Sequence record: OR980947
Source of the DNA: Shigella phage Tf
Reading direction: 5' to 3' (one strand)
Length of the DNA stretch: 64,000 nucleotides
In this document: positions 35,694 to 58,251 of the stretch, piece after piece
Layout of the letters: every line of letters starts with the position of its first letter
Numbering within the stretch: position 1 is the first letter of the stretch
The notes under the pieces: model-generated
Database searches by the model: none
What the model saw: the letters and a program-made list of their open reading frames with translations, nothing else
What the model was told of the DNA's origin: nothing
Translations under genes and position numbers: made by a program

Positions 35694-35718
35694 GGGAGCC
35701 TCTTCGGAGGCTCTTTTC
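35694..35718 (+). terminator. rho-independent terminator (UUCG tetraloop)
   Basis: gagcctc ttcg gaggctc followed by ttttc. Confidence 0.6.
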
Positions 35719-39842: not shown

Positions 39843-41039
39843 ATGAACAAAGTACAGATTATTAAAAAGAATGGCTCACTTGAAGAACCTGATATCAAAA
39901 AAGTTTTAGCGGCAGTAACAAAGTCAGCTAACAGGGTTGGATATAAAGAACTGCCACCAGATGTTACCCAAGCTCTTGAGTCAGCATTTATGAGGATTCT
40001 GGTAAAATCCACTAAGCAGAATAACTTACTCGTTTCAGTAAATGATATTCACAGTATTGTTGAGGGTGCTTTGGCAGAAGTCAATCACGAGATTTATGAG
40101 TCTTACTCAACATATAGAAATTATCGTAAAGAGGTTGCTCAAAATTGGGATGAGCTTTACCAAAAGACTAGAGACACACTCTTCTTAGGTGACCGTGAAA
40201 ATGCTAACTTTGACAGCAGTTTAATTTCTACAAAAGGTTCAATTATTCGTGGTTACCTGACTAAAGAAATCTTTAAACAGTACCATTTAACACCAGAGGA
40301 ACTTGAAGCCATTGAAAAAGGGTTTATCTACATCCATGACTTAAGAGACCTGATTTTTGGTGGTATCAACTGTTGCCTGTTTGACATTGGTAAAGTGCTG
40401 AAGGGTGGCTTTGAAATGTCTGGCATCGAATACTGTGAACCAAAGTCTGTGCTGTCGGCCTTGCAGGTTATTGGTGACGTAGTTCTTTCAGCAACTGCAC
40501 AGCAATTTGGTGGCTTTACTTTAGCAGAGATTGATAAGGTACTTGTACCGTATGCTAAGAAGTCTCTACGCTATCATGCTGAGAAAGCAGCATCTTATGG
40601 TATTCCTAAAGAACATTACCACAATTATGTCATGGAGCAGTTACAGATTGAACTAACTCAAGGTTTCCAGTCACTTGAAATGAAACTAAATACTGTACCT
40701 TGTAGCCGTGGGGATTTTGCATTTACAACTTTGACATTCGGGTTACTTGATTCAGATATGTCTAATGAAGATAACCGACTGCAATACATGATTGCAAGTA
40801 CTCTCCTAGATGTTCGTATGAATGGACAAGGCAAGAGTAAAAAACCTGTTGTATTCCCTAAACTGGTTTATATTTATGACCAGAAGAGACATGATGAGAA
40901 TATCTGTCAAGGTCACCTGTACAGTAAAGCTATTGAGTGTTGCTCTAAAGCAATGTACCCAGATTTCTTAAGTGTGTCTGGTCATGGTGCTGTAGCAGAG
41001 GCTTTTGAGCGTTCTGGTAAGGTAATTTCACCGATGGGT
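39843..41039 (+). CDS. nrdD: anaerobic ribonucleoside-triphosphate reductase, exon 1
   Basis: NrdD-like sequence YIHDLRDLIFGGINCCLFD; exon ends ...ISPMG, stop follows within intron. Confidence 0.8.
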
Positions 41040-41781
41040 TAACAAGCTCTATAGCTCATCTAAAACGTGCCTAAACAGGGAAACTCTACAGATGTAGACA
41101 ATCCTGTGCTAAATGATGTACGATGTAAGAAACTATACAACATAGGAGTATTACATGCCAAATTATCATGTTACTGAGGACGGAAGGGTCTTTAGGAAAA
41201 ATGGTGTAGAACTTACGCAGTGGAAATCCAACACTGGTTATATGAAAGTAAGGTTTTATGGAAGGAAGAATCGTGACATGTATGTCCATAGGTTAGTTGC
41301 TGAAAAGTATGTACCTAACCCTAACAATCTTCCAATTGTAAAACACAAAGATGATAACAAACTGAACAACCATGCTTCTAACTTAGAATGGGGAACTCAT
41401 TCTGAGAATGTTAAAGAAGGCTATGAGAATGGTTGCTACAAGTTTTGTAAGCGTTCATATGCTGTGAAGGCTACACATAAAGTGACAAAAGAAGTTATTG
41501 TTGCTAAGTCAATACGAGAGTTATCCAATATACTCGGATATAATCGCAAGACTATCTCTTCAATATTGAAGGGTGTAAAAGAACATAATAACTTTGAACA
41601 TGAATTTGAATACATCTAAATGCCGAACGACTAACCGTGATGAATGTAGCGGTGTAGGGTCAAGCGACTCGAAATGGTACGCTACTTAGAAATAAGTAGA
41701 AGATATAGTCTGGACTTACTGGCGACAGTAAGCAGCTTGAATAAAGCGGGGTAAGCTTAGCGAACTTACCTGAACAACAAG
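41040..41781 (+). mobile_element. group I intron in nrdD carrying an HNH homing endonuclease ORF
   Basis: P4 pairing cagggaaa / caatcctgtg upstream of the ORF; R-like cgaacgactaac and S-like agatatagtct downstream; 5' splice after U, 3' terminal G; joined exons read ISPMG-CRAFLSPYHNEYGEEFYVGRANIGAASLNLP. Confidence 0.7.
41155..41619 (+). CDS. HNH homing endonuclease (intron-encoded)
   Basis: HNH motif HKDDNKLNNHASNLEWGTHSENV; taggag RBS; located in intron loop. Confidence 0.75.
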   Translation: MPNYHVTEDGRVFRKNGVELTQWKSNTGYMKVRFYGRKNRDMYVHRLVAEKYVPNPNNLPIVKHKDDNKLNNHASNLEWGTHSENVKEGYENGCYKFCKRSYAVKATHKVTKEVIVAKSIRELSNILGYNRKTISSILKGVKEHNNFEHEFEYI

Positions 41782-42729
41782 TGTAGAGCATTTTTATCAC
41801 CATACCATAACGAATATGGAGAAGAGTTTTACGTTGGTCGTGCTAATATTGGTGCTGCATCTTTGAACTTACCAATGATTTACCAGTATTCTAAAGAGAA
41901 TGGTTTAGATTTCTGGAAAGAGCTTGATAAGTACCTAGAAATGATTCGCAGCTTCCATAAGAAACGTTACGAAATGATTGCCAATATGCCAGCAAGTTCT
42001 AACCCTCTTGCATTCACACAAGGTGGTCTGTATAAAGGGACTAAGAAGCCTACTGACAAGGTTGGTTGGGATATTGTGAAATCCTTCACAGCTTCTTTTG
42101 GGGTTACTGCTCTTGATGAGTTATCTGTTCTTGCTGAAGGTAAACGACTTCATGAAGTTGGAAGTTCTAGTTTTGCATACGATGTTCTGGCATACATTAA
42201 CATGAAAACTGAAGAGTTTAAGAATGAAGATGGCTTCCTGTATGCAGTATATGGCACTCCAGCAGAGTCATTGTGTGGAACTCAGCTAAAACAGTTCAGA
42301 GATATGTTTGGTGTTATTAAAGGCGTTTCTGACAAGGAATACTTTACAAACAGCTTCCATATGAATGTTGCAGCAAACATCTCACCATTTGAGAAGCAGG
42401 ACTTAGAAGAGCCATTCTTCCATATCTGTAGAGGTGGCAGAATCCAGTATGTAAGGGTAGCTAACCCAGAAAACTTACCAGCACTTAAGAGTTGTATTAC
42501 CAGAGGGATGTTGAAGGGTTTTTATCAGGGACTTAACTTTGACTTAGCAATCTGTGAGCATTGTGGTAACAGACCAAAGGCTGATGTTGAAGAGTGTGAG
42601 GTTTGCCATTCACATGATATCTCTGTGATTAACAGGGTGTGTGGGTACTTGTCATTCACAAAAATTAAAGGTCAGTCTCGAATGAATGACGCTAAGATGG
42701 CAGAAATTAAGGATAGAGTCTCTATGTAA
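41782..42729 (+). CDS. nrdD: anaerobic ribonucleoside-triphosphate reductase, exon 2
   Basis: Zinc site CEHCGN...CEVCHSHD and glycyl-radical motif RVCGYLSF at C-terminus. Confidence 0.8.
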   Translation, partial: CRAFLSPYHNEYGEEFYVGRANIGAASLNLPMIYQYSKENGLDFWKELDKYLEMIRSFHKKRYEMIANMPASSNPLAFTQGGLYKGTKKPTDKVGWDIVKSFTASFGVTALDELSVLAEGKRLHEVGSSSFAYDVLAYINMKTEEFKNEDGFLYAVYGTPAESLCGTQLKQFRDMFGVIKGVSDKEYFTNSFHMNVAANISPFEKQDLEEPFFHICRGGRIQYVRVANPENLPALKSCITRGMLKGFYQGLNFDLAICEHCGNRPKADVEECEVCHSHDISVINRVCGYLSFTKIKGQSRMNDAKMAEIKDRVSM

Positions 42730-44908: not shown

Positions 44909-44959
44909 ACAGATACTATAAGGGGACTGTAAAGGTTCCCTTTTTATTTTGGAGATAAT

Positions 44960-45475
44960 ATGTATCTGTCAAATCTAAAACGTTCGGCTGCAATGTCAGT
45001 GTTAAGGCTCAGCTTTGAGGAACGTCAAGAGTTCATTGACTCCCACCAATATGACCCTTCCAACTCCAATCACATGATTCTCTGGAATCGTGAGAGTACT
45101 CGTGAAAGAGCATTATTCCGATATTACCCATACTACACCATAGACAACCTGTATGAGTGTTTTGTTGTGAAGAACACCATTACAGTACTCAATAAACTTT
45201 GCAGATATACAGGTAGTCAATCCTTCACATTAGGCCACCACAAACCTGTTACAAAGGGTGGTGAGCACCACTGTGCAAACTGGTTTATCCAGACTAAACT
45301 TGATAACCAGAAGCAAGGGGATAATCTTCTAAGCACTCCTAAGATGACCTACGAAGAGCAAGAGAAATATATCAAAAATAATATGCCAGATGTGCTTGAC
45401 AACAACTATACAGATTTGGCAATATCTCTCCTGTTGAAGTTCGAGACAGTTTATAGGGCAACTTACAATGGCTAA
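44960..45475 (+). CDS. HNH-motif nuclease family protein
   Basis: HNH-like core GHHKPVTKGGEHHCANWFIQTKLDNQ. Confidence 0.4.
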   Translation: MYLSNLKRSAAMSVLRLSFEERQEFIDSHQYDPSNSNHMILWNRESTRERALFRYYPYYTIDNLYECFVVKNTITVLNKLCRYTGSQSFTLGHHKPVTKGGEHHCANWFIQTKLDNQKQGDNLLSTPKMTYEEQEKYIKNNMPDVLDNNYTDLAISLLLKFETVYRATYNG

Positions 45476-45746
45476 AGAGAAGTGGGAGATTTTACCATTA
45501 GTCAGTGAAGGCGGTAATGGTTGTGAAATGTACATGATACGTGGTCATGTTCCAGAACCAATTGCACTTGAGATGGTAAACAACTTTACAGATGGCTCTT
45601 ACAAAGATTTAGGAGAACCAACTGTCAAGCAACAATGGGTTAAACCTGTACCAGACAGCACAGGTAACTGTAGTGTACTTTATCACGTTGTAGACCCTGC
45701 AAAATGCAAATCTGCAATGGCAGTAACAAACGTAACTTTTGATTGA
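45468..45746 (+). CDS. hypothetical protein
   Basis: 92 aa ORF. Confidence 0.3.
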   Translation: MAKEKWEILPLVSEGGNGCEMYMIRGHVPEPIALEMVNNFTDGSYKDLGEPTVKQQWVKPVPDSTGNCSVLYHVVDPAKCKSAMAVTNVTFD

Positions 45747-45758
45747 GAGAAAAAAACT

Positions 45759-46640
45759 ATGAAGACATCTATTCGTGTTATAATTCATTCACCGACAAAA
45801 GGGTCTCATGAAGAAGAGTTTAACATCATCCAGTTCCCTTCTGGTGAGATTGGTGGACACTTTTCACAAGAGCTTGTTGATTTTACTGCTTATGCAGCAT
45901 CATCTATCAACAATGTGATTATGATTGTAAAAGGTTATGATAAGGACACATTGTTTGCTGTGGCACTCGCTAAAGAAGCAATTGATGATTTAATTCCTCA
46001 TGATTATGCCTTAAAGACTGTCATCTTTTACTACTTACCAAATGCACGATATGACCGTCACATGTTTAAAGGTGATGCAGCAGCTTTGAAGGTTTTTGCT
46101 AAACAGGTTAACGCAATGGGGTTTGGTGCAGTATGTGCAGTTGACCCTCACAGCTATGTACCAGATAACCTGTTTGACTGCTTCCAAAGTATTCCTCAAA
46201 ATGAAATTGCAGTCCACTATGCAAATGACCCACTGGTTGATTACTTAGTAGCCCCAGATGCAGGTGCTGCTAAGAAGATTGCAGAGACTGCTAAAGAGGT
46301 GGATAAACCATATATCACAATGTCTAAGGTGCGCAACCTTAAAACTGGTGAAATTACTGGTATGCGAATCCTTGATGATGTTGATTTGACAGATAAAACT
46401 GTTATGATTCTTGATGATATCTGTGATGGTGGTCGAACCTTCATAGAAGCAGCTAAACATCTTCGTGAAGCAGGTGCAAAACGTGTTGAGCTTTATGTAA
46501 CACATGGTATCTTCTCTAAAGGTGTTGAAAACCTTCTTGACAATGGTATCGACCATATTTACACTACAAACTCTTTAGGAGAAGCTAAAGACCGTAGCTT
46601 AACACATTATAGTCAAGTTACTGTAGCAAACCTTGATTGA
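45759..46640 (+). CDS. prs: ribose-phosphate pyrophosphokinase-like protein (Prs-like; possible ADP-ribose pyrophosphokinase)
   Basis: PRPP-binding motif VMILDDICDGGRTF; ~290 aa; adjacent to NAMPT-like gene. Confidence 0.55.
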   Translation: MKTSIRVIIHSPTKGSHEEEFNIIQFPSGEIGGHFSQELVDFTAYAASSINNVIMIVKGYDKDTLFAVALAKEAIDDLIPHDYALKTVIFYYLPNARYDRHMFKGDAAALKVFAKQVNAMGFGAVCAVDPHSYVPDNLFDCFQSIPQNEIAVHYANDPLVDYLVAPDAGAAKKIAETAKEVDKPYITMSKVRNLKTGEITGMRILDDVDLTDKTVMILDDICDGGRTFIEAAKHLREAGAKRVELYVTHGIFSKGVENLLDNGIDHIYTTNSLGEAKDRSLTHYSQVTVANLD

Positions 46641-46648
46641 AAGTTTAT

Positions 46649-46670
46649 AGGGGCTTGAAAGCCCCATTTT
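46649..46670 (+). terminator. putative terminator/attenuator hairpin
   Basis: ggggctt gaaa gcccc followed by atttt. Confidence 0.4.
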
Positions 46671-46685
46671 GAGAGAGATTAAAAG

Positions 46686-48467
46686 ATGACTAAATCACTT
46701 TATGCAGTACCAGCAGGTTTAAACGCGGACGCTTACAAGGCATCACATATATATCAGTATCCAGATGCTACGCAATACCTTATGTTGAACCTGACACCAC
46801 GTAGTGACAAATGGTTTAACAGCCCTTTGGCAATTGACGGTGTAGTGGCTTTTGGTATTCAACGTTTCGTTAAAGATTACTTGATAGACCACTGGAACGC
46901 CACTTTCTTTGAACGTGATAAAAAAGAAGCAATTGACGAAATCTTAGAAGTCATGAATGGTGTTCTGGGTAAAGATGCTATCGGTCGAGAGCATTGGGAA
47001 GCACTTCACGACTTAGGTTATCTACCAGTTGAAGTATACGCTGTAGAAGAAGGTACAGTTGTTCCTATGCGTGTACCAATGATTGTCTTCCAGAACACTG
47101 TTTCAGGTTTCCATTGGGTAGCGGGATATCTGGAAGATGCTTTCTCTGCTGAGATTTGGAAGGCTTGTACCATTGCAACTATTGCATTGCATTATAAACG
47201 CATCTGTAAGAAGTGGGCTGACCTTACTTGCGACAATGACTTACATTTACCTTATCAGTGTCATGACTTTGCTATGCGTGGTATGTCCGGCTTTACTGAT
47301 GACGCATTTAATGCTGTAGGCCACTTGACCAGCTTTAAAGGAACTGATAGCTTCCCTGCTGTATACACGGCTAAACGCATCTACGGACAGTCTTACCCAG
47401 TCTCTGATATTGGTGGTTCTGTACCAGCCACTGAACACTCTGTAATGTGTGCAAACATTGCTTGGGAAGGTGGTAATGAATTGATTGAAGAGGAAAGACG
47501 CTTTAAAGGTGAGTTACAAACCTTCCGTCGTTTCTTAACAGAAACTTACCCAACTGGTATTGCAAGTGTTGTTTCAGATACTTATAACTTCTGGAGAACT
47601 GTATCAGTCATATTGCCAGAACTCCGTAAAGAGATTATGGAACGTGATGGCAAACTGGTAATTCGTCCTGATTCTGGAGACCCTGTACATATTGTCACAG
47701 GATACAAAGCAATCCATTTAGAGTGTGCTAAAAAGGCTTATTACGAACACCTAAGTAAGCTGGAAGCCAGCGACACAATGCTGAATGCTGTTCTGAACAT
47801 GAAGCTTGAAAACATCAATTATGGCATTGCTGGATGGCTACTGTCAGAAGGCTACGAAATGGTTGTTGACAGAGAAGACTTTGAAGTTGCTGATACAGTG
47901 CTGTTGAAAAATGCTTATATGGTTGGTTCTGCAAACGTTGTAACACGTCCTGTAGCGGAGATTGATGGAGCTATCAAGACACTGTATAACATCTTTGGAG
48001 GAACTATCAACTCTAAAGGTTTTAAAGTACTGGATGAGCATATCGGGCTTATTTATGGTGACTCTATCACGTTGGAACGTGCAAACGAAATACTGAAGCG
48101 TTTGTATGAAATGGGTTTTGCAAGCTCTAACGTAGTATTTGGTGTAGGTTCTTACACTTACCAGTACATGACTCGTGACACTTTTGCATTTGCTGTCAAA
48201 GCAACTCTTGCAAGCATTGGTGGTAAAGAGATTATGCTTGCAAAAGACCCTAAAACAGACAGTGGCGTTAAGAAATCTGCCTTTGGTGGTGTAGCACCTA
48301 TGTGGGATGGTGATAAGCTGAAAGCTGTAGATGGCTATGGATTCCAGAGTTTTGCAGATGTACTTGACCACCCAGCTTGTGCTTTACGTTTAGTCTTTAG
48401 TGACTCTGAGCAGTTCGGTTACACAACTCTTGGTGATATTCGAAATAATATTGACAAGCAGCTTTAA
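46686..48467 (+). CDS. nadV: nicotinamide phosphoribosyltransferase-like protein (NadV/NAMPT family)
   Basis: 593 aa; general NAMPT-like architecture; adjacent to prs-like gene as in other large lytic phages; family assignment by inspection only. Confidence 0.5.
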   Translation: MTKSLYAVPAGLNADAYKASHIYQYPDATQYLMLNLTPRSDKWFNSPLAIDGVVAFGIQRFVKDYLIDHWNATFFERDKKEAIDEILEVMNGVLGKDAIGREHWEALHDLGYLPVEVYAVEEGTVVPMRVPMIVFQNTVSGFHWVAGYLEDAFSAEIWKACTIATIALHYKRICKKWADLTCDNDLHLPYQCHDFAMRGMSGFTDDAFNAVGHLTSFKGTDSFPAVYTAKRIYGQSYPVSDIGGSVPATEHSVMCANIAWEGGNELIEEERRFKGELQTFRRFLTETYPTGIASVVSDTYNFWRTVSVILPELRKEIMERDGKLVIRPDSGDPVHIVTGYKAIHLECAKKAYYEHLSKLEASDTMLNAVLNMKLENINYGIAGWLLSEGYEMVVDREDFEVADTVLLKNAYMVGSANVVTRPVAEIDGAIKTLYNIFGGTINSKGFKVLDEHIGLIYGDSITLERANEILKRLYEMGFASSNVVFGVGSYTYQYMTRDTFAFAVKATLASIGGKEIMLAKDPKTDSGVKKSAFGGVAPMWDGDKLKAVDGYGFQSFADVLDHPACALRLVFSDSEQFGYTTLGDIRNNIDKQL

Positions 48468-48480
48468 AAGTATATGATAA

Positions 48481-48505
48481 GAGGCTCCTACGGGAGCCTT
48501 TTTAA
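48481..48505 (+). terminator. rho-independent terminator
   Basis: gaggctcc tacg ggagcctt followed by ttt. Confidence 0.6.
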
Positions 48506-48520
48506 TTTCTGGAGAAAACT

Positions 48521-48856
48521 ATGAAAATCAAAGAGATGAATATCAACATTGTCTTAGAAGAACGTTGGGAGAACATTAAGAAACCTAAAGATGGTAAAAA
48601 ATTCCTTAACAAAATTTTAGTAGCAGCTAAAGAAGAACTGACTGGCAAGATTGCAGCAGCAATCACAATAAAAGTCTGTGTAAAAGGTCTTCCACAACAT
48701 CACCAATTTGCACTTGACGAGTTTAAAGAAAGCTTCTACAATCCAAACAAACAGATGCTTGAAAGTAACTTTGCAGTGTCTACAAGTATCGTCCATGACA
48801 GAAGCTTTATCCTTTACAAAAATATGAGAGGTGAGTCATGCAAGCATATTGGATAG
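48521..48856 (+). CDS. hypothetical protein
   Basis: 111 aa ORF. Confidence 0.3.
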   Translation: MKIKEMNINIVLEERWENIKKPKDGKKFLNKILVAAKEELTGKIAAAITIKVCVKGLPQHHQFALDEFKESFYNPNKQMLESNFAVSTSIVHDRSFILYKNMRGESCKHIG

Positions 48857-49014
48857 AAATTTTACTGTCACTTGGTAGTGTAGCAGTATTTGTTTACCTT
48901 CTTTGCAAGTACTATGCAGAACACAAAAAATGTGACTTCTGTAATGGGGAAGGATATACAAGAGCAGGCTGTTGCCCTATCTGTGGCGGTTCTGGTAAAA
49001 TGTTTAATAAGTAA
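48838..49014 (+). CDS. small membrane-anchored zinc-finger protein (58 aa, not in ORF track)
   Basis: Strong RBS gaggtgag; N-terminal TM helix then two CxxCxGxG motifs (CDFCNGEG, CPICGGSG) as in DnaJ zinc fingers. Confidence 0.4.
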   Translation: MQAYWIEILLSLGSVAVFVYLLCKYYAEHKKCDFCNGEGYTRAGCCPICGGSGKMFNK

Positions 49015-52606: not shown

Positions 52607-52630
52607 AGGCTACTTCGGTAGCCTTTTTTG
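52607..52630 (+). terminator. rho-independent terminator (UUCG tetraloop)
   Basis: aggctac ttcg gtagcct followed by tttttt. Confidence 0.6.
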
Positions 52631-52644
52631 ATATGGGAGGATGA

Positions 52645-53544
52645 ATGGCTAAAGCAGAACTTGATAAATACTACACACCAGACGAAGTAATAAGTGTGTG
52701 TGAAGAGAAGCTACAAAAGGTCTTTAAAGGCTCTATTTCGTGCATTATAGACCCCTGTGCAGGTGACGGAAGATGGAAAGACTCTTTTAAGAGGGTTTGT
52801 CAAGATGTTGTGCTATACGACATCGAACCAGACTCTGAAGATGTTAGCACAAGAGACTTCCTGAAAGATGACTTAGAAATTCCAGATAAGCCTTTTGCGA
52901 TTGTTACCAACCCTCCATTTGGTAAGGCAAACAGTCTGTCTACAAAGTTCTTTAACAAGGCTGCTACAATGAATCCAGACTACATTTGCTTCCTAGTTCC
53001 TATTAACTTTGGGAAGAAGAATCTTAGCAGACTTAGCAGAGAGTACACCTGCATTGATGAAGTAGAGCTACCTAACCTTCATTTTGAAAGGATTGATGGA
53101 GTTGCCTACTCAGCAAAAGAGTCATCACTACGCTGTAACTTCCAAATCTGGAAGAGACAAAAACGGATAGATAAAATTTGTAAGATTGTACCTGTGATAG
53201 TTGATGGTGTAAGAGTCTATAAGCGTGAGAAATTCACACTATACAGACCACCATGTCACAAGATTGATGGTAAAGAGCAGCCAGTTGGTGTTTTAGGTAA
53301 ACTAGATGGCAAAGACTTGTTCACGATTATCACGCATGGTCGCAAGGCTGGTACTGTGAAGGTTTTTGAACCAGATAAAGACAAGGTGTCAGTGAAACAG
53401 TTTATCGAACCACACATAGAAGGACTTTACTCAGCAATCAAACAAGAATGGTTTAATGATTTGAGAGATGGTTTTGCACTGAGTTATGCAGGCTCTATCA
53501 ACTCACAAGAAATCATAAATACTTTAGAAAAACACTTGCATTAA
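52645..53544 (+). CDS. DNA N6-adenine methyltransferase (gamma-class, TaqI-like motif order)
   Basis: N-terminal YYTP, SAM motif IDPCAGDG, catalytic NPPF (TNPPFG). Confidence 0.7.
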   Translation: MAKAELDKYYTPDEVISVCEEKLQKVFKGSISCIIDPCAGDGRWKDSFKRVCQDVVLYDIEPDSEDVSTRDFLKDDLEIPDKPFAIVTNPPFGKANSLSTKFFNKAATMNPDYICFLVPINFGKKNLSRLSREYTCIDEVELPNLHFERIDGVAYSAKESSLRCNFQIWKRQKRIDKICKIVPVIVDGVRVYKREKFTLYRPPCHKIDGKEQPVGVLGKLDGKDLFTIITHGRKAGTVKVFEPDKDKVSVKQFIEPHIEGLYSAIKQEWFNDLRDGFALSYAGSINSQEIINTLEKHLH

Positions 53545-53601
53545 TAAAAGAATTTATATAGTATACCTGTAAACAAACCTAGTAGACGAGAGAGAGCAAC
53601 T

Positions 53602-54441
53602 ATGAAATTCAAAGAGTTCCAGAGCAAAACACCTTGCAAGATTGATTTCGTTTGTGGTGTAGCTTCCTTCTTCATGGGGTACATGGATTGGGCTAACTGT
53701 GCAAAGCCTTACTCAGCAAACCGTAGCATTGAACGACGAATTGCTAAACCTTACCTTAATGAAGAACTTCGTGAGGTGGATTTACGTTCCCGTGTTACGG
53801 GTGTACTGTTCAATGGAGAAGTTATCAACATTGATTCTCATGCGCGTGTAGAGAACTGGAAGAATGGGAAGTTAGGTGCTCCCAAGAACGGCCTTGTCTA
53901 TGTGACCCTGTTTGCTGTTAATTCACAGGAAGAAGTAGATTTCCTCTACGACCAAGAAAACTCACTGGACTCACGAGCCACAAATGGTGACCAAGTTACA
54001 ACTGCAATACTACGCTCTGGTTATAAGCCACAGACAGCGTTCACCAAGAAATTTACTGGTGCTGGCGTGTGGGCCTTATTAGGTCTCCGTGGATGCCTTG
54101 ATGAAGCATTTGTACTCTATCAAGAAGAGCTTAAACTTATTGATGCACTCGGCATTGATAAGGATGAGATGGATAAGTACAAAGAGAAGACTGTAAACGG
54201 TGTTAAGCAGAAGTGTGAACTGCGTAAAAAGTACTCTGCTCCAATTATGGCAGCAATGCTTAAGAGCTTCAAAGAAAACCCTGAAAAAGCTACAAAGTTC
54301 TGGTTGGACTACCGTGATGATGATAAGTCTGTAAGCAGCTTCTTAGATGCTATGAAGACCCAGTATGACCAGAATGGTGGTGTGTTTCAAGGTTATGTAA
54401 TGTCACAAGCTGACGTTGCATTTAGAGCTTATAAGGACTGA
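53602..54441 (+). CDS. ParB/Srx-like domain protein, paralog A (function unknown)
   Basis: ParB-like motif INIDSHARVENW; homologous over most of its length to ORF 57492..58223 (KYSAPIMAAML vs KYSSGIRAAML, FWLDY vs FWEDY); directly downstream of a methyltransferase. Confidence 0.35.
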   Translation: MKFKEFQSKTPCKIDFVCGVASFFMGYMDWANCAKPYSANRSIERRIAKPYLNEELREVDLRSRVTGVLFNGEVINIDSHARVENWKNGKLGAPKNGLVYVTLFAVNSQEEVDFLYDQENSLDSRATNGDQVTTAILRSGYKPQTAFTKKFTGAGVWALLGLRGCLDEAFVLYQEELKLIDALGIDKDEMDKYKEKTVNGVKQKCELRKKYSAPIMAAMLKSFKENPEKATKFWLDYRDDDKSVSSFLDAMKTQYDQNGGVFQGYVMSQADVAFRAYKD

Positions 54442-54442
54442 T

Positions 54443-54676
54443 ATGCAAGTTAAAAAGATGATGGTCAGAGTTGCTCTCAAGTATCTGGGGGCAGCTACAC
54501 AATACGAAGTAGCAGAGTACCTCTCTGCAAAGTTTGGTAAGAAATATCTCCCATCGGATTTTACACAGACCTTTATAGACTTAGAGAAGACGAAAACTAT
54601 CACTAAGTTACCTGTTAAGCGTCGTAACTTTCGTAATGGGAAACCTACAGGTTTTGGGAACCTCTATGTAATGTAA
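54443..54676 (+). CDS. small putative winged-helix DNA-binding protein
   Basis: ATG overlaps upstream stop (tgatATG); LKYLGAATQYEVAEYLSAKFG resembles an HTH. Confidence 0.3.
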   Translation: MQVKKMMVRVALKYLGAATQYEVAEYLSAKFGKKYLPSDFTQTFIDLEKTKTITKLPVKRRNFRNGKPTGFGNLYVM

Positions 54677-56473: not shown

Positions 56474-56496
56474 AGGCTCCTTCGGGAGCCTTTTTA
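56474..56496 (+). terminator. rho-independent terminator (UUCG tetraloop)
   Basis: ggctcc ttcg ggagcc followed by ttttt; identical to the hairpin at 58229. Confidence 0.65.
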
Positions 56497-56513: not shown

Positions 56514-57398
56514 ATGAAGCCGATGTTCAAATATCTTGGTGGTAAAACAAGAATATTAAAAGAGTATGAGCGTTTAGGTGTCTTTCCAGACAACTGTACA
56601 AACTTCTATGACCTGTTTTCAGGTGGTGGTTCAGTGGCTATCTGGGCTTATAACAGATACCCAGAGGCAAAAGTGTTTATTAATGAGATAAATAAACATA
56701 TTATAGGTCTTTACACAACTTTCAGAGATGACTATGAAAACTTCATGGAAGAATTTGAGTACTTGTCAAAAAGGTACTTAGCCTTACCTATGCAGGAAGA
56801 GTATGCCGTGAAAGGTCAGCGTCATAACCGTCTACGCTATAAAATGTATTACAGTGTAAGAGAGGAACTTCTTTTGCTTGGTGAAGAGGGAGCATATGAC
56901 TACAGATACTATGCCAGACAGTTTTTCCTTCAAAAACTAAGTTTTGGTGGTGTATGGCAGACAACTAAAGAGATGAAAGGTCACTATGCAACACCTTGCG
57001 GGTATTTGCTGGAAGAAGAGATTTTCTTCACAAAAACTAAAGAATCACTATCCGAGTTTTACAGTTTTATCACCGATGAAAGGGTAATACTTAGCAGTGA
57101 ACCTTATGACAGGGTTGACATAGAACATGGAGGAGGTACAGTTATTTACTGTGACCCCCCGTATATCAACACCAACCAGAAATATGGTGCAAAGTTTGAC
57201 ATTGAGATGTCTGTAAAATTATGCGAAGATATGATTTCTTGGGGGGAGTTAGGCTCTAAAGTTTTGATGTCAAACTCTCAGTGGGATGGATGGGCAAAGC
57301 TAATTCCTGAAAATTTTAACTTGACAGAGGTTAGTCATTCATACACAATACATGCACAGAGAAGCAAAGATATTAACGAAGTAATTATTCACAACTAA
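56514..57398 (+). CDS. dam: Dam-family DNA N6-adenine methyltransferase (alpha-class)
   Basis: N-terminal YLGGKTRIL, SAM motif DLFSGGGSV, C-terminal catalytic DPPY. Confidence 0.75.
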   Translation: MKPMFKYLGGKTRILKEYERLGVFPDNCTNFYDLFSGGGSVAIWAYNRYPEAKVFINEINKHIIGLYTTFRDDYENFMEEFEYLSKRYLALPMQEEYAVKGQRHNRLRYKMYYSVREELLLLGEEGAYDYRYYARQFFLQKLSFGGVWQTTKEMKGHYATPCGYLLEEEIFFTKTKESLSEFYSFITDERVILSSEPYDRVDIEHGGGTVIYCDPPYINTNQKYGAKFDIEMSVKLCEDMISWGELGSKVLMSNSQWDGWAKLIPENFNLTEVSHSYTIHAQRSKDINEVIIHN

Positions 57399-57491
57399 GG
57401 TATCAAGTTATGGCAAACAGCATCAATGTAGCACTGAATGGCAAGGTTGTTAAAATTCACACTAAGATTATCAGTGTCGAGGATTTCCTTA

Positions 57492-58223
57492 ATGAAAAAC
57501 GTTACAAAGAAAAACCCTCGTCAACGAAATACACTTAAGCGTCTGAAAAGCAAACACCTTAATGGTGACGTATCACCAGACCAAACAGTAGTCCATGTGG
57601 CTAAGTTCGGTAGTTCACTGTTCATCATTGATGGTCACTCACGTCGAGAGGCGTGGAAAGTTGGTAACCTGACACGACCAGAAAACTTGATTGCAGTTAT
57701 ATACCATGTGAACTCCATATTGGATGTCACAGATTTGTACACTCATTTTGACTCTGAGTTAGCAAGAGAAAAACCCTCAGAAGTTTATTACGGAAATATG
57801 AAGATGATTTCTTTCAACCCAGAGTCAGAACTGATGAAAGCATCTTGGGCAACTGCTATTAAATATGTTGCTGCATACTACGGTGTACAACAAGTATCTA
57901 ACACTGAAACAGTTAAATATCTTAATGACTTTAAAAATGAGCTGGAACAAATTGATTCTCTTGAAGTACAGCTTAAAGGTGTAGTAAACGCAAAACGGAA
58001 ATATTCTTCTGGGATTCGTGCAGCAATGTTAATTACACTACGCCTATATGGTGATGCTGCATTTTCCTTTTGGGAAGACTATAATGACTACTGTGAAGGT
58101 ATGTCTAACAAATATGTTACAGAGGTATACCAACTGGCATTACAAGCTGGTCGCGGAGCACAGGCTGATAAGTTGTTGATGAATCAAGCGATTTCACTTG
58201 TCAACTATTACAGTCAAGAATAA
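57492..58223 (+). CDS. ParB/Srx-like domain protein, paralog B (function unknown)
   Basis: Motif FIIDGHSRREAWKVGNL; paralog of ORF 53602..54441; probable ATG at 57492 (gagga RBS) within tracked ORF 57438..58223; directly downstream of Dam methyltransferase. Confidence 0.35.
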   Translation: MKNVTKKNPRQRNTLKRLKSKHLNGDVSPDQTVVHVAKFGSSLFIIDGHSRREAWKVGNLTRPENLIAVIYHVNSILDVTDLYTHFDSELAREKPSEVYYGNMKMISFNPESELMKASWATAIKYVAAYYGVQQVSNTETVKYLNDFKNELEQIDSLEVQLKGVVNAKRKYSSGIRAAMLITLRLYGDAAFSFWEDYNDYCEGMSNKYVTEVYQLALQAGRGAQADKLLMNQAISLVNYYSQE

Positions 58224-58228
58224 TACAC

Positions 58229-58251
58229 AGGCTCCTTCGGGAGCCTTTTTC
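58229..58251 (+). terminator. rho-independent terminator (UUCG tetraloop)
   Basis: ggctcc ttcg ggagcc followed by ttttt. Confidence 0.65.

Follow-up and report, generated by a model that had tools for sequence, protein, structure and literature searches.

Two adjacent genes, which we designate adps and namat, lie on the plus strand of the window, i.e. of the whole 64,000-nt stretch analysed (Shigella phage Tf, sequence record OR980947), with a 45-nt spacer between them (Table 1). The window belongs to a Felixounavirus and covers about three quarters of a genome of approximately 87 kb; matches to the region were obtained in 257 phage records, with a top nucleotide identity of 95.6%. The first-pass annotation had placed a Prs-like and a NAMPT-like open reading frame here, and its coordinates were confirmed exactly, on the plus strand. 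Its family assignments are backed by profile searches: for the first product, Pfam Pribosyltran scores 44.7 bits, Pribosyl_synth scores 37.9 bits, and PHROG 619 ('ribose-phosphate pyrophosphokinase') is matched with E 5e-97; for the second, Pfam yields NAPRTase (119 bits) and NAMPT_N, while the PHROG matched, with E 1e-201, is 448 ('nicotinamide phosphoribosyl transferase').

Table 1. Features of the adps-namat locus and the distal Macro gene (positions in the window)
Feature	Position	Strand	Basis or remark
Divergent mosaic patch over Adps N-terminal domain	45700..46300	+	Sliding-window identity to Bas63
adps	45759..46640	+	Prs-like ORF, 293 aa
Adps catalytic-hairpin lysine K190	46326..46328	+	Equivalent to ICP1 K185, SpbetaL1 K162
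Adps PP loop DDICDGGRTF, aa 219-228	46413..46442	+	Alignment to ICP1 Adps
adps-namat spacer hairpin GGGGCT-TGAA-AGCCCC, then ATTTTG	46650..46671	+	Sequence; conserved in Bas63
namat	46686..48467	+	NAMPT-like ORF, 593 aa
Namat selectivity-clamp loop (SCL) TPRSDKWF	46794..46817	+	SCL rule, PMC12774641
Namat inserted alpha/beta subdomain, ~88 aa, aa 340-427	47703..47966	+	Alignment gap versus 9w5w
Namat selectivity-clamp motif GSYTYQYMTRD, aa 488-498 (Y490, Y494)	48147..48179	+	Consensus, PMC12774641
Sigma70-like promoter TTGACA-16-TATGAT	48451-48478		Abuts terminator-like hairpin on its upstream side
Intrinsic-terminator-like hairpin, 10-bp stem and T-run	48479..48502	+	12 nt past namat stop
Two-domain Macro protein, 261 aa	59771..60556	+	Unlinked to the pair, 11.3 kb downstream

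The spacer hairpin and the ATTTTGAGAGAGA following it are the same at every base in the Felixounavirus Bas63, and the spacers of the two phages differ by substitutions a few bases upstream and approximately 13 bases downstream of the stem. The hairpin is a possible attenuator or mRNA-stability element, as judged from its sequence. Beyond namat, the sigma70-like promoter presumably serves the genes that follow. The UUCG-loop hairpin next to it has at least four further copies, which makes five hairpins in total with the variant at 35696 included. Promoter and hairpin do not form a recurrent cassette, since just two of these hairpins have a strong promoter next to them. The neighbouring open reading frames (44960-45475 and 45468-45746 on one side, 48521-48856 and 48838-49014 on the other) belong to PHROGs of unknown function, and no Macro domain was found in these four.

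By Pfam, Adps has the two-domain fold of PRPS-like proteins, yet by NCBIfam it is not a Prs equivalog. All Prs equivalog cut-offs were missed widely (e.g. 93.7 versus 297 bits). This bears on the reading that the database names imply, namely canonical salvage, in which a true PRPP synthetase and a NadV/Nampt enzyme would make NMN and the host NadR or PncC/NadD would complete NAD+. Historical annotation speaks for it, all relatives being labelled 'ribose-phosphate pyrophosphokinase' and 'nicotinamide phosphoribosyltransferase' in GenBank, and so do two NCBIfam models whose cut-offs Adps exceeds, slightly for the subfamily model TIGR01251 (123.8 bits, cut-off 113) and more clearly for NF006629 (469 bits, cut-off 405). 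Adps shares 99.3% of residues with a protein of phage adrianh, 77% with gp79 of Bas63 (equal length) and 31-38% with Adps of ICP1 and IW18, compared with 23% for E. coli Prs. As regards the C-terminal alpha11-alpha12 regulatory/filament module of PRPS, whose loss counts among the features of NARP1 Adps, a five-sequence alignment has the window's Adps ending 13 residues short of E. coli Prs with a 7-residue gap, and retaining more C-terminal sequence than Adps of ICP1 and IW18.

A search of PDB with Adps returned only canonical Prs chains (best E 5e-18). Since solved Adps structures were not among these matches, residues were mapped through alignment with the ICP1 gene from GenBank. The DDICDGGRTF loop, pointed out already in the first-pass annotation, was found in the expected protein and corresponds to the PP loop of ICP1 Adps, whose residue roles have been described (PMC13586617). 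R97, H131, D167, K190, D219, D220 and D223 of Adps are equivalent to ICP1 R87, H121, D161, K185, D212, D213 and D216, and F26, C222 and F228 conserve ICP1 F18, C215 and F221. Adps residues whose importance mutagenesis has shown are retained. Mutation of the lysine to alanine abolishes function in ICP1 (K185A; PMC13586617) and likewise in SpbetaL1 (K162A; Osterman et al.). In the remodelled PP-loop donor site and at the adenine contacts of ICP1 Adps (C215-S220, F18, F92, F221 and F223), several positions differ: F92, which contacts adenine, is replaced by M102, the PP-loop residues A218, A219 and S220 by G, R and T, and F223 by E230. Every one of these substitutions is shared with the Bas63 protein, which has been validated in vivo.

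Sliding-window comparison with Bas63 revealed a patch with sharp edges over the N-terminal domain of Adps, where nucleotide identity is 65-79% as against 92-98% in the flanks. Identity of the two proteins is accordingly uneven, 66% for residues 1-180 and 95% for residues 181-293. Across Felixounavirus records, Adps identity is bimodal, and two N-terminal alleles that may circulate by recombination provide a lead for follow-up.

Namat is closer still to its Bas63 counterpart (97% identity with gp80, equal length) and matches the structures of SpbetaL1 Namat, 9w5w and 9w5x, with E 1e-128. Residues D15, Y17, F195, R198, D221, H251, R327 and D329 are equivalent to SpbetaL1 D13', Y15', F189, R192, D215, H245, R306 and D308, and A248 and G458-D459-S460 also match catalytic or NAD-contact residues of that enzyme. 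An adenine clamp, absent from Nampt enzymes, is present. According to the published rule, the residue of its SCL that stacks on adenine is either an Arg in position 3 or the one coming after a Lys/Tyr, and Bas63 Namat is cited as an example of the Lys type (PMC12774641). The loop analysed here reads S40-D41-K42-W43, with K42-W43 in the adenine-stacking positions, identically to Bas63. The comparison of the pair with Prs and NadV on one side and ADP-ribose pyrophosphokinase and nicotinamide-ADPR transferase on the other, proposed in the first-pass annotation, came out in favour of the latter: Adps is not a Prs equivalog, and Namat possesses the clamp.

Upon comparison with SpbetaL1, two insertions were detected in Namat. 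The smaller one comprises 15-20 residues (aa 256-275). The larger one is absent both from SpbetaL1 Namat and, judging by lengths across 41 homologs, from the bacterial forms of approximately 496 residues. It is confidently folded in the AF2 model (pLDDT 94-97, compared with 93 for the whole protein), and profile searches yielded no independent family match for it. This structured insertion in Ounavirinae Namat could possibly be a regulatory or inhibitor-evasion module and represents another lead.

Experimental data on close relatives weigh heavily against canonical salvage. The pathway NARP1 was discovered through deletion of genes 79-80 in Bas63 (Osterman et al. 2024), and literature data on that phage cover the phenotype of the deletion, NAD+ levels and ADPR-PP as a metabolite. 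Bas63 evaded SIR2-HerA in a host lacking pncC and nadR, i.e. independently of both host routes, and ADPR-PP was seen only when wild-type phage met SIR2-HerA (Osterman et al. 2024). Enzyme activities in vitro come from the SpbetaL1 and ICP1 homologs (Osterman et al.; PMC13586617). SpbetaL1 Adps converts ADPR and ATP to ADPR-PP and gives no product in the canonical Prs reaction, the substrate of which appears as ribose-5-phosphate in the legend of Fig. 2D and as 'PRPP' in the running text (Osterman et al.); SpbetaL1 Namat, offered both donors, makes NAD+ only (Osterman et al.). In favour of the canonical route, Namat homologs do convert some PRPP to NMN in vitro as long as no ADPR-PP is supplied (PMC12774641; Osterman et al.), and because of this activity a minor canonical contribution is possible. 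As the explanation of the locus, canonical salvage was rejected in view of the genetics and metabolomics of Bas63 together with the Namat clamp; for the Bas63 orthologs it had largely been refuted already, and we regard it as very improbable here.

Could the pair cooperate with a further NAD-related gene located elsewhere? In such a NARP2- or NARP3-like arrangement, the NAMPT-like enzyme would act with a phage NMN adenylyltransferase (NMNAT), or nicotinamide riboside import would be combined with a NadR-like enzyme. Both types occur in other phages (NadV plus NatV in KVP40, gp86/87 in Bas30), and a window of 64 kb leaves about a quarter of the genome aside. However, among the matches listed, which take in all those with E up to 0.004, Pfam detected no NMNAT/cytidylyltransferase, Nudix, NadR or PnuC family in the 96 open reading frames of the window. 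At this sensitivity, the earlier statement that the window encodes no NMN adenylyltransferase holds. The same families were absent, among the matches listed, from the 40 annotated coding sequences of the syntenic Bas63 genome that lie beyond the window. Moreover, the Felixounavirus Namats are classed as 'Adps-associated' and not as Nmnat-associated (Osterman et al., supplementary tables). As none of these families turned up among the matches listed for the window and for the remaining part of Bas63, NARP2 and NARP3 were rejected as improbable in the extreme.

We conclude that adps and namat very probably encode NARP1, the pathway with which a Felixounavirus counters host defence (probability roughly 0.93, on comparative grounds). 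This interpretation is supported by orthology to the Bas63 operon, by the signatures of Namat and Adps and by the absence of NMNAT. The proteins, the divergent N-terminal allele of Adps included, probably share the activities of their relatives. Under NARP1, once host defence systems (SIR2-HerA/Nezha, type I Thoeris, DSR1/2, SEFIR) cleave NAD+ to ADP-ribose and nicotinamide, Adps would transfer the beta,gamma-pyrophosphate of ATP to position 1'' of ADP-ribose, releasing AMP and forming ADPR-PP, and Namat would exchange the pyrophosphate of ADPR-PP for nicotinamide, giving NAD+ directly. Such a route would require neither an NMN intermediate nor an NMN adenylyltransferase.

The reading of the two genes as an NAD+ reconstitution pair, composed of an ADPR pyrophosphokinase and a nicotinamide-ADPR transferase, therefore stands, and the genes can be equated with NARP1 as orthologs of Bas63 genes 79-80. 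What does not stand is their description as a candidate, for this is an instance already catalogued. The adrianh Adps is listed as Namat-associated (Osterman et al., supplementary tables), and a namat gene lies next door in 97% of members of the Adps clade (Osterman et al.). The genes are orthologous to those that founded the pathway, they come from a phage of the same genus, and their allele already features in the tables of the founding paper. The finding is an ordinary one; the pathway is known and the window adds nothing new in principle.

The Macro gene, which had been presented as a third ADP-ribose-related function of the region, is real and its product is a homolog of Adpp, but it is situated outside the operon. 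The product matches Pfam Macro with 32.3 bits (cut-off 22). Residues 1-160 form a macrodomain of the Poa1p/DarG/TARG1 class, followed by a beta-rich C-terminal domain of about 100 residues without known fold. The best structural matches suggested a function of DarG/TARG1 type, which was rejected: their catalytic Lys aligns to an invariant Gln90, found in IW18 as well, so that DarG/TARG1 activity ranks below an activity of Poa1p/Adpp type. The Macro protein is a possible accessory ADPR-1''-phosphate phosphatase similar to Adpp. Poa1p Ser30 and Gly33 align to Leu32 and Ala35 of the Macro protein, given what we take to be the Poa1p sequence. Numbering of these two residues follows PMC12846349.

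These features raise the idea that Felixounaviruses possess an extended NARP1 in trans, the core pair acting as proposed above and the unlinked Macro protein supplying Adps with ADPR. The substrate would be ADPR-1''-phosphate, arising from RES-type defence (aRES), or other ADPR derivatives of RES-type or signalling defences. Such a function would be added to the core NARP1 reading and would not replace it. In NARP1-AP, an in-operon Adpp with a Macro domain turns ADPR-1P into ADPR and lets NARP1 overcome aRES. Homology to the in-operon Macro protein of IW18 (28% identity over ~155 aa, E 1e-14) is accompanied by the common motifs HxCNC...MGxGIA, N-x-Y-x-Q and P-x-IG-x-G and by Gln90 in place of the catalytic Lys. 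NARP1-AP is defined by a Macro gene of the Adpp/Poa1p class within two genes of the operon; the gene described here is of this class, and it is the only one, 11.3 kb away. It falls outside the published survey because that survey scanned two genes on either side of NARP1, and its tables include no Felixounavirus. Against the extension, about 17 open reading frames separate the Macro gene from the pair and place it in another transcription unit. The family is also widespread in phages with no Adps homolog among the matches listed, such as T4 and T6. With 34% identity, the Macro proteins of T4 and T6 resemble the one described here more than do the in-operon proteins of Vibrio phages among those matches. 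The residues presumed equivalent to Poa1p Ser30 and Gly33 have changed, and the additional C-terminal domain is of unknown function. On balance, we consider NARP1 extended in trans rather unlikely, though worth keeping in mind.

NARP1 is an important recent viral counter-defence, rebuilding NAD+ from ADP-ribose and nicotinamide against NAD-depleting immunity, and the present instance is useful for annotation, deposited relatives still carrying Prs and Nampt names. If the Macro protein does act in trans, the current estimate that 15% of NARP1 phages carry a phosphatase, which counts only genes within two of the operon, would be considerably too low, and phages similar to Bas63 would resist aRES. 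The distal Adpp-like Macro protein could in that case widen the range of NAD-targeting defences escaped by these therapeutically relevant phages.

Among known systems, NARP1 of Escherichia phage Bas63 (JohannRWettstein; bas63_0079-0080) is the nearest, with the same genus, gene order, gene lengths, 45-nt spacer and an identical hairpin, and with NMNAT detected in neither genome. It differs by the allele over Adps residues 1-180 and by a small extra open reading frame past namat, bas63_0081, which the window lacks. Bacillus phage SpbetaL1 and Vibrio phage ICP1 share the order adps-namat, the catalytic and substrate-contact residues and the SCH motif of Namat. SpbetaL1 Namat differs by having neither insertion and by Arg40 in the SCL where K42-W43 stands here; ICP1 Adps, structures of which are given in PMC13586617, is approximately 31% identical and differs by Phe instead of Met at the F92 position and by AAS instead of GRT in the PP loop. 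NARP1-AP of Vibrio phage Gary (Adps-Adpp-Namat) has the same three-gene layout as Adps-Macro-Namat of Vibrio phage IW18, and homology to the window extends to all three products (Adps 38%, Namat 40-45%, Macro 28%). There, however, Macro is part of the operon, whereas here it is distal and carries the added C-terminal domain. NARP2 of Vibrio phage KVP40 and canonical pairs of Prs with NadV/Nampt draw on the same superfamilies (PRPS-like proteins and type II phosphoribosyltransferases) and serve the same goal, more NAD+. They are set apart from the adps-namat pair by the lack of NMNAT in the window, by the adenine clamp of Namat, which Nampt does not have, and by the acceptor, ribose-5-phosphate for canonical Prs and ADPR for Adps orthologs (Osterman et al.).

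A Prs-like and a NAMPT-like gene had been singled out in the first-pass annotation as a candidate NAD+ reconstitution pair, in which ADP-ribose (ADPR) is pyrophosphorylated and then joined to nicotinamide. ORF calling, Pfam and PHROG place both genes exactly where claimed, on the + strand and 45 nt apart, and the loop DDICDGGRTF proves to be residues 219-228 of the Prs-like protein. The reading itself was right: by orthology and residues, the pair is the known NAD+ reconstitution pathway 1 (NARP1), made up of Adps (Prs-like) and Namat (NAMPT-like). This is the best-supported account, with a probability of about 0.93. Host NADases would split NAD+ into ADPR and nicotinamide, Adps would pyrophosphorylate ADPR at its 1'' position with ATP as donor, and on Namat nicotinamide would displace pyrophosphate, regenerating NAD+. 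What the analysis establishes for the window genes directly is their orthology, the motifs and residues they carry, the way they are arranged, and that no NMN adenylyltransferase (NMNAT) accompanies them.

Features of the gene pair and of other parts of the window
Feature	Position	Strand	Remarks
Split nrdD (anaerobic ribonucleotide reductase)	39843-41042 + 41863-42729
HNH homing-endonuclease ORF	41155-41619		interrupts nrdD
Terminator-like hairpin	44920-44942		upstream of four-ORF same-strand block
Small ORF	44960-45475		PHROG 3500; weak HNH-like match (E 3e-4)
Small ORF	45468-45746		PHROG 4726; directly before adps
Divergent patch vs Bas63	about 45700-46300		nt identity 65-79% vs 92-98% in flanks; sharp bounds
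adps, Prs-like, 293 aa	45759..46640	+	Pfam Pribosyltran, Pribosyl_synth; PHROG 619 'ribose-phosphate pyrophosphokinase'
Spacer hairpin	46650-46671		GGGGCT-TGAA-AGCCCC then ATTTTG; between adps and namat
namat, NAMPT-like, 593 aa	46686..48467	+	Pfam NAPRTase, NAMPT_N; PHROG 448 'nicotinamide phosphoribosyl transferase'
Namat insertion, 15-20 aa	47451-47510		aa 256-275, vs SpbetaL1 Namat
Namat insertion, ~88 aa	47703-47966		aa 340-427, vs SpbetaL1 Namat
Terminator-like hairpin, 10-bp stem	48479-48502		3' of namat stop codon
Near-identical UUCG/ACG-loop terminator hairpins	35696-35713; 48451-48502 (with promoter); 52607-52624; 56474-56491; 58229-58246
N6_Mtase-like protein	52645-53544
279-aa protein	53602-54441		no assigned function
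Dam-like D12-class adenine methyltransferase	56514-57398		Pfam 84 bits
261-aa protein	57438-58223		no assigned function
Two-domain Macro protein, 261 aa	59771..60556		Pfam Macro 32.3 bits (cut-off 22); PHROG 335 'phosphatase'

Adps of the window, of the Felixounavirus Bas63 and of the Vibrio phages IW18 and ICP1 were aligned with E. coli Prs, using the residue criteria of PMC13586617. The window protein stays below every NCBIfam Prs equivalog threshold and keeps the residues validated by mutagenesis in ICP1 Adps (PMC13586617): R97, H131, D167, K190, D219, D220 and D223 correspond to ICP1 R87, H121, D161, K185, D212, D213 and D216. F26, C222 and F228 likewise match ICP1 F18, C215 and F221. It departs from ICP1 at F92 (Met), the PP-loop AAS (GRT) and F223 (Glu), the same three departures being found in the in-vivo-validated Bas63 Adps. 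The patch divergent from Bas63 corresponds to the N-terminal domain of Adps. Compared with the window, Felixounavirus records form two groups by identity, some 158 with 90% or more and some 94 with 60-80%, a split that suggests two Adps alleles exchanged through recombination.

Hallmarks of Namat are a Nampt-like catalytic core and an adenine 'selectivity clamp' (PMC12774641). Both parts of the clamp are present in the window protein: the motif G488-SYTYQYMTRD-498, including Y490 and Y494, and the SCL S40-D41-K42-W43, identical in Bas63. The core residues D15, Y17, F195, R198, D221, A248, H251, R327, D329 and G458-D459-S460 align to contact residues of Namat from the Bacillus phage SpbetaL1. 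The crystallised SpbetaL1 enzyme and the ~496-aa forms differ in being devoid of both insertions of the window protein. The long form occurs throughout Ounavirinae-like phages, at identities as low as about 46%, and ~496-aa phage and enterobacterial forms have the SCH clamp motif and no insertion. The larger insertion is poorly conserved in sequence and is predicted to form a compact alpha/beta subdomain (pLDDT 94-97); its sequence has no family match, and it is not discussed in the Namat structural paper (PMC12774641).

Chromosomal ~496-aa proteins annotated as 'nicotinate phosphoribosyltransferase' in Klebsiella, Cronobacter, Kluyvera, Kosakonia and Erwinia (P0069, P0072, P0074, P0091, P0103) share 46-48% identity with window Namat (40% for Erwinia P0069) and carry a Namat-type SCH motif, GSFTYQYNTRD. 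Judged by this motif, they are consistent with the bacterial NARP1 homologs of PMC12774641.

That the window encodes no NMNAT was confirmed: all 96 non-overlapping window ORFs were translated and run against Pfam, and no cytidylyltransferase/NMNAT, Nudix, NadR or PnuC family was among the matches listed, which stop at about E 0.001-0.004. With only about three quarters of the genome falling inside the window, the 40 annotated Bas63 CDS outside its span were scanned too, with none of these families among the matches listed. Down to that level of match, the scan of the window ORFs rules out partners of NARP2 (Nampt and Nmnat) or NARP3 (PnuC-like and NadR-like; PMC13464706) type within the window.

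The pair closes a same-strand block that opens with two small ORFs, both kept in Bas63 (genes 77-78). With the terminator-like hairpin at 44920-44942 on one side of them and adps on the other, they may be co-transcribed with NARP1. The spacer hairpin is unchanged at every base in Bas63, although substitutions occur close by, a few bases before the stem and about 13 bases after it. The hairpin may act as an attenuator or as an mRNA processing or stability element.

The recurrent hairpin AGGCTCC-TTCG-GGAGCCT, followed by a T-run, punctuates the early/middle region. Directly ahead of those at 48479 and 52607 lie sigma70-like promoters (TTGACA-16-TATGAT scores 11/12), so that one transcription unit ends where the next starts. 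The ORFs in 52645-54676 and 56514-58223, for which the Bas63 annotation has nothing equivalent at these positions, probably represent accessory anti-restriction cargo. The interrupted nrdD is likewise annotated in the Bas63 record, as a joined CDS.

The macrodomain gene reported alongside the pair is also real. Cleavage of NAD+ by RES-domain defences (aRES) yields ADPR-1''-phosphate, a compound that is no substrate for Adps, and some phages carry a Poa1p-like Macro phosphatase, Adpp, within the NARP1 operon (NARP1-AP; 10.64898/2026.01.28.702374). The survey in that preprint covered two genes on each side of NARP1, and its tables name no Felixounavirus. The N-terminal part of the window protein is a macrodomain of the Poa1p/DarG/TARG1 class in which the motifs HGCNC...MGAGIA, NLYTQ and P-x-IGAG are invariant. 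This macrodomain has a homologue in the in-operon Macro protein of IW18 (28% identity, E 1e-14) and shares its motifs; where TARG1/DarG have their catalytic Lys, it has an invariant Gln. These resemblances leave room for an Adpp-like role in trans with NARP1, which we nevertheless consider rather unlikely: the gene lies 11.3 kb from the pair in a separate transcription unit, the family is frequent in phages outside the Adps matches (e.g. T4 and T6, 34% identity), and the protein has an extra beta-rich C-terminal domain. Neither a family nor a structure matches this domain (~100 aa), which within the phage collection is confined to Felixounavirus-like phages.

For NARP1 itself, chemistry and anti-defence phenotype come from the literature on orthologs, and we infer that the proteins of the window phage act like them. 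The discovery of the pathway was made with a Felixounavirus, the BASEL phage Bas63, also called JohannRWettstein (Osterman et al., bioRxiv 10.1101/2024.02.11.579819; later Nature 2024). According to that study, Bas63 lacking genes 79-80 becomes sensitive to SIR2-HerA and NAD+ recovery is abolished; host pncC and nadR are not needed, and ADPR-pyrophosphate (ADPR-PP) appears only when wild-type Bas63 infects cells with the defence system. In vitro, SpbetaL1 Adps makes ADPR-PP from ADPR and ATP, and SpbetaL1 Namat makes NAD+ from ADPR-PP and nicotinamide (10.1101/2024.02.11.579819).

Of the 257 phage records that match the region, nearly all are Felixounavirus (Escherichia, Salmonella, Shigella or Citrobacter phages), which places the window in a FelixO1-like myovirus genome some 87 kb long. 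Some interest remains in three features: the Adpp-like Macro protein encoded away from the pair, the insertion in Namat and the mosaic of Adps alleles. In Bas63 (MZ501086), bas63_0079 and bas63_0080 agree with the window ORFs in length (293 and 593 aa) and in their 45-nt spacer; gp80 (Namat) is 97% and gp79 (Adps) 77% identical to its window counterpart. Phage adrianh, the best nucleotide match (95.6%), has an Adps 99.3% identical to that of the window, and the supplementary tables of Osterman et al. (10.1101/2024.02.11.579819) list it as Namat-associated and its Namat as Adps-associated. A pair of exactly this kind has thus been catalogued before as NARP1, a known pathway whose first description came from Felixounavirus itself.
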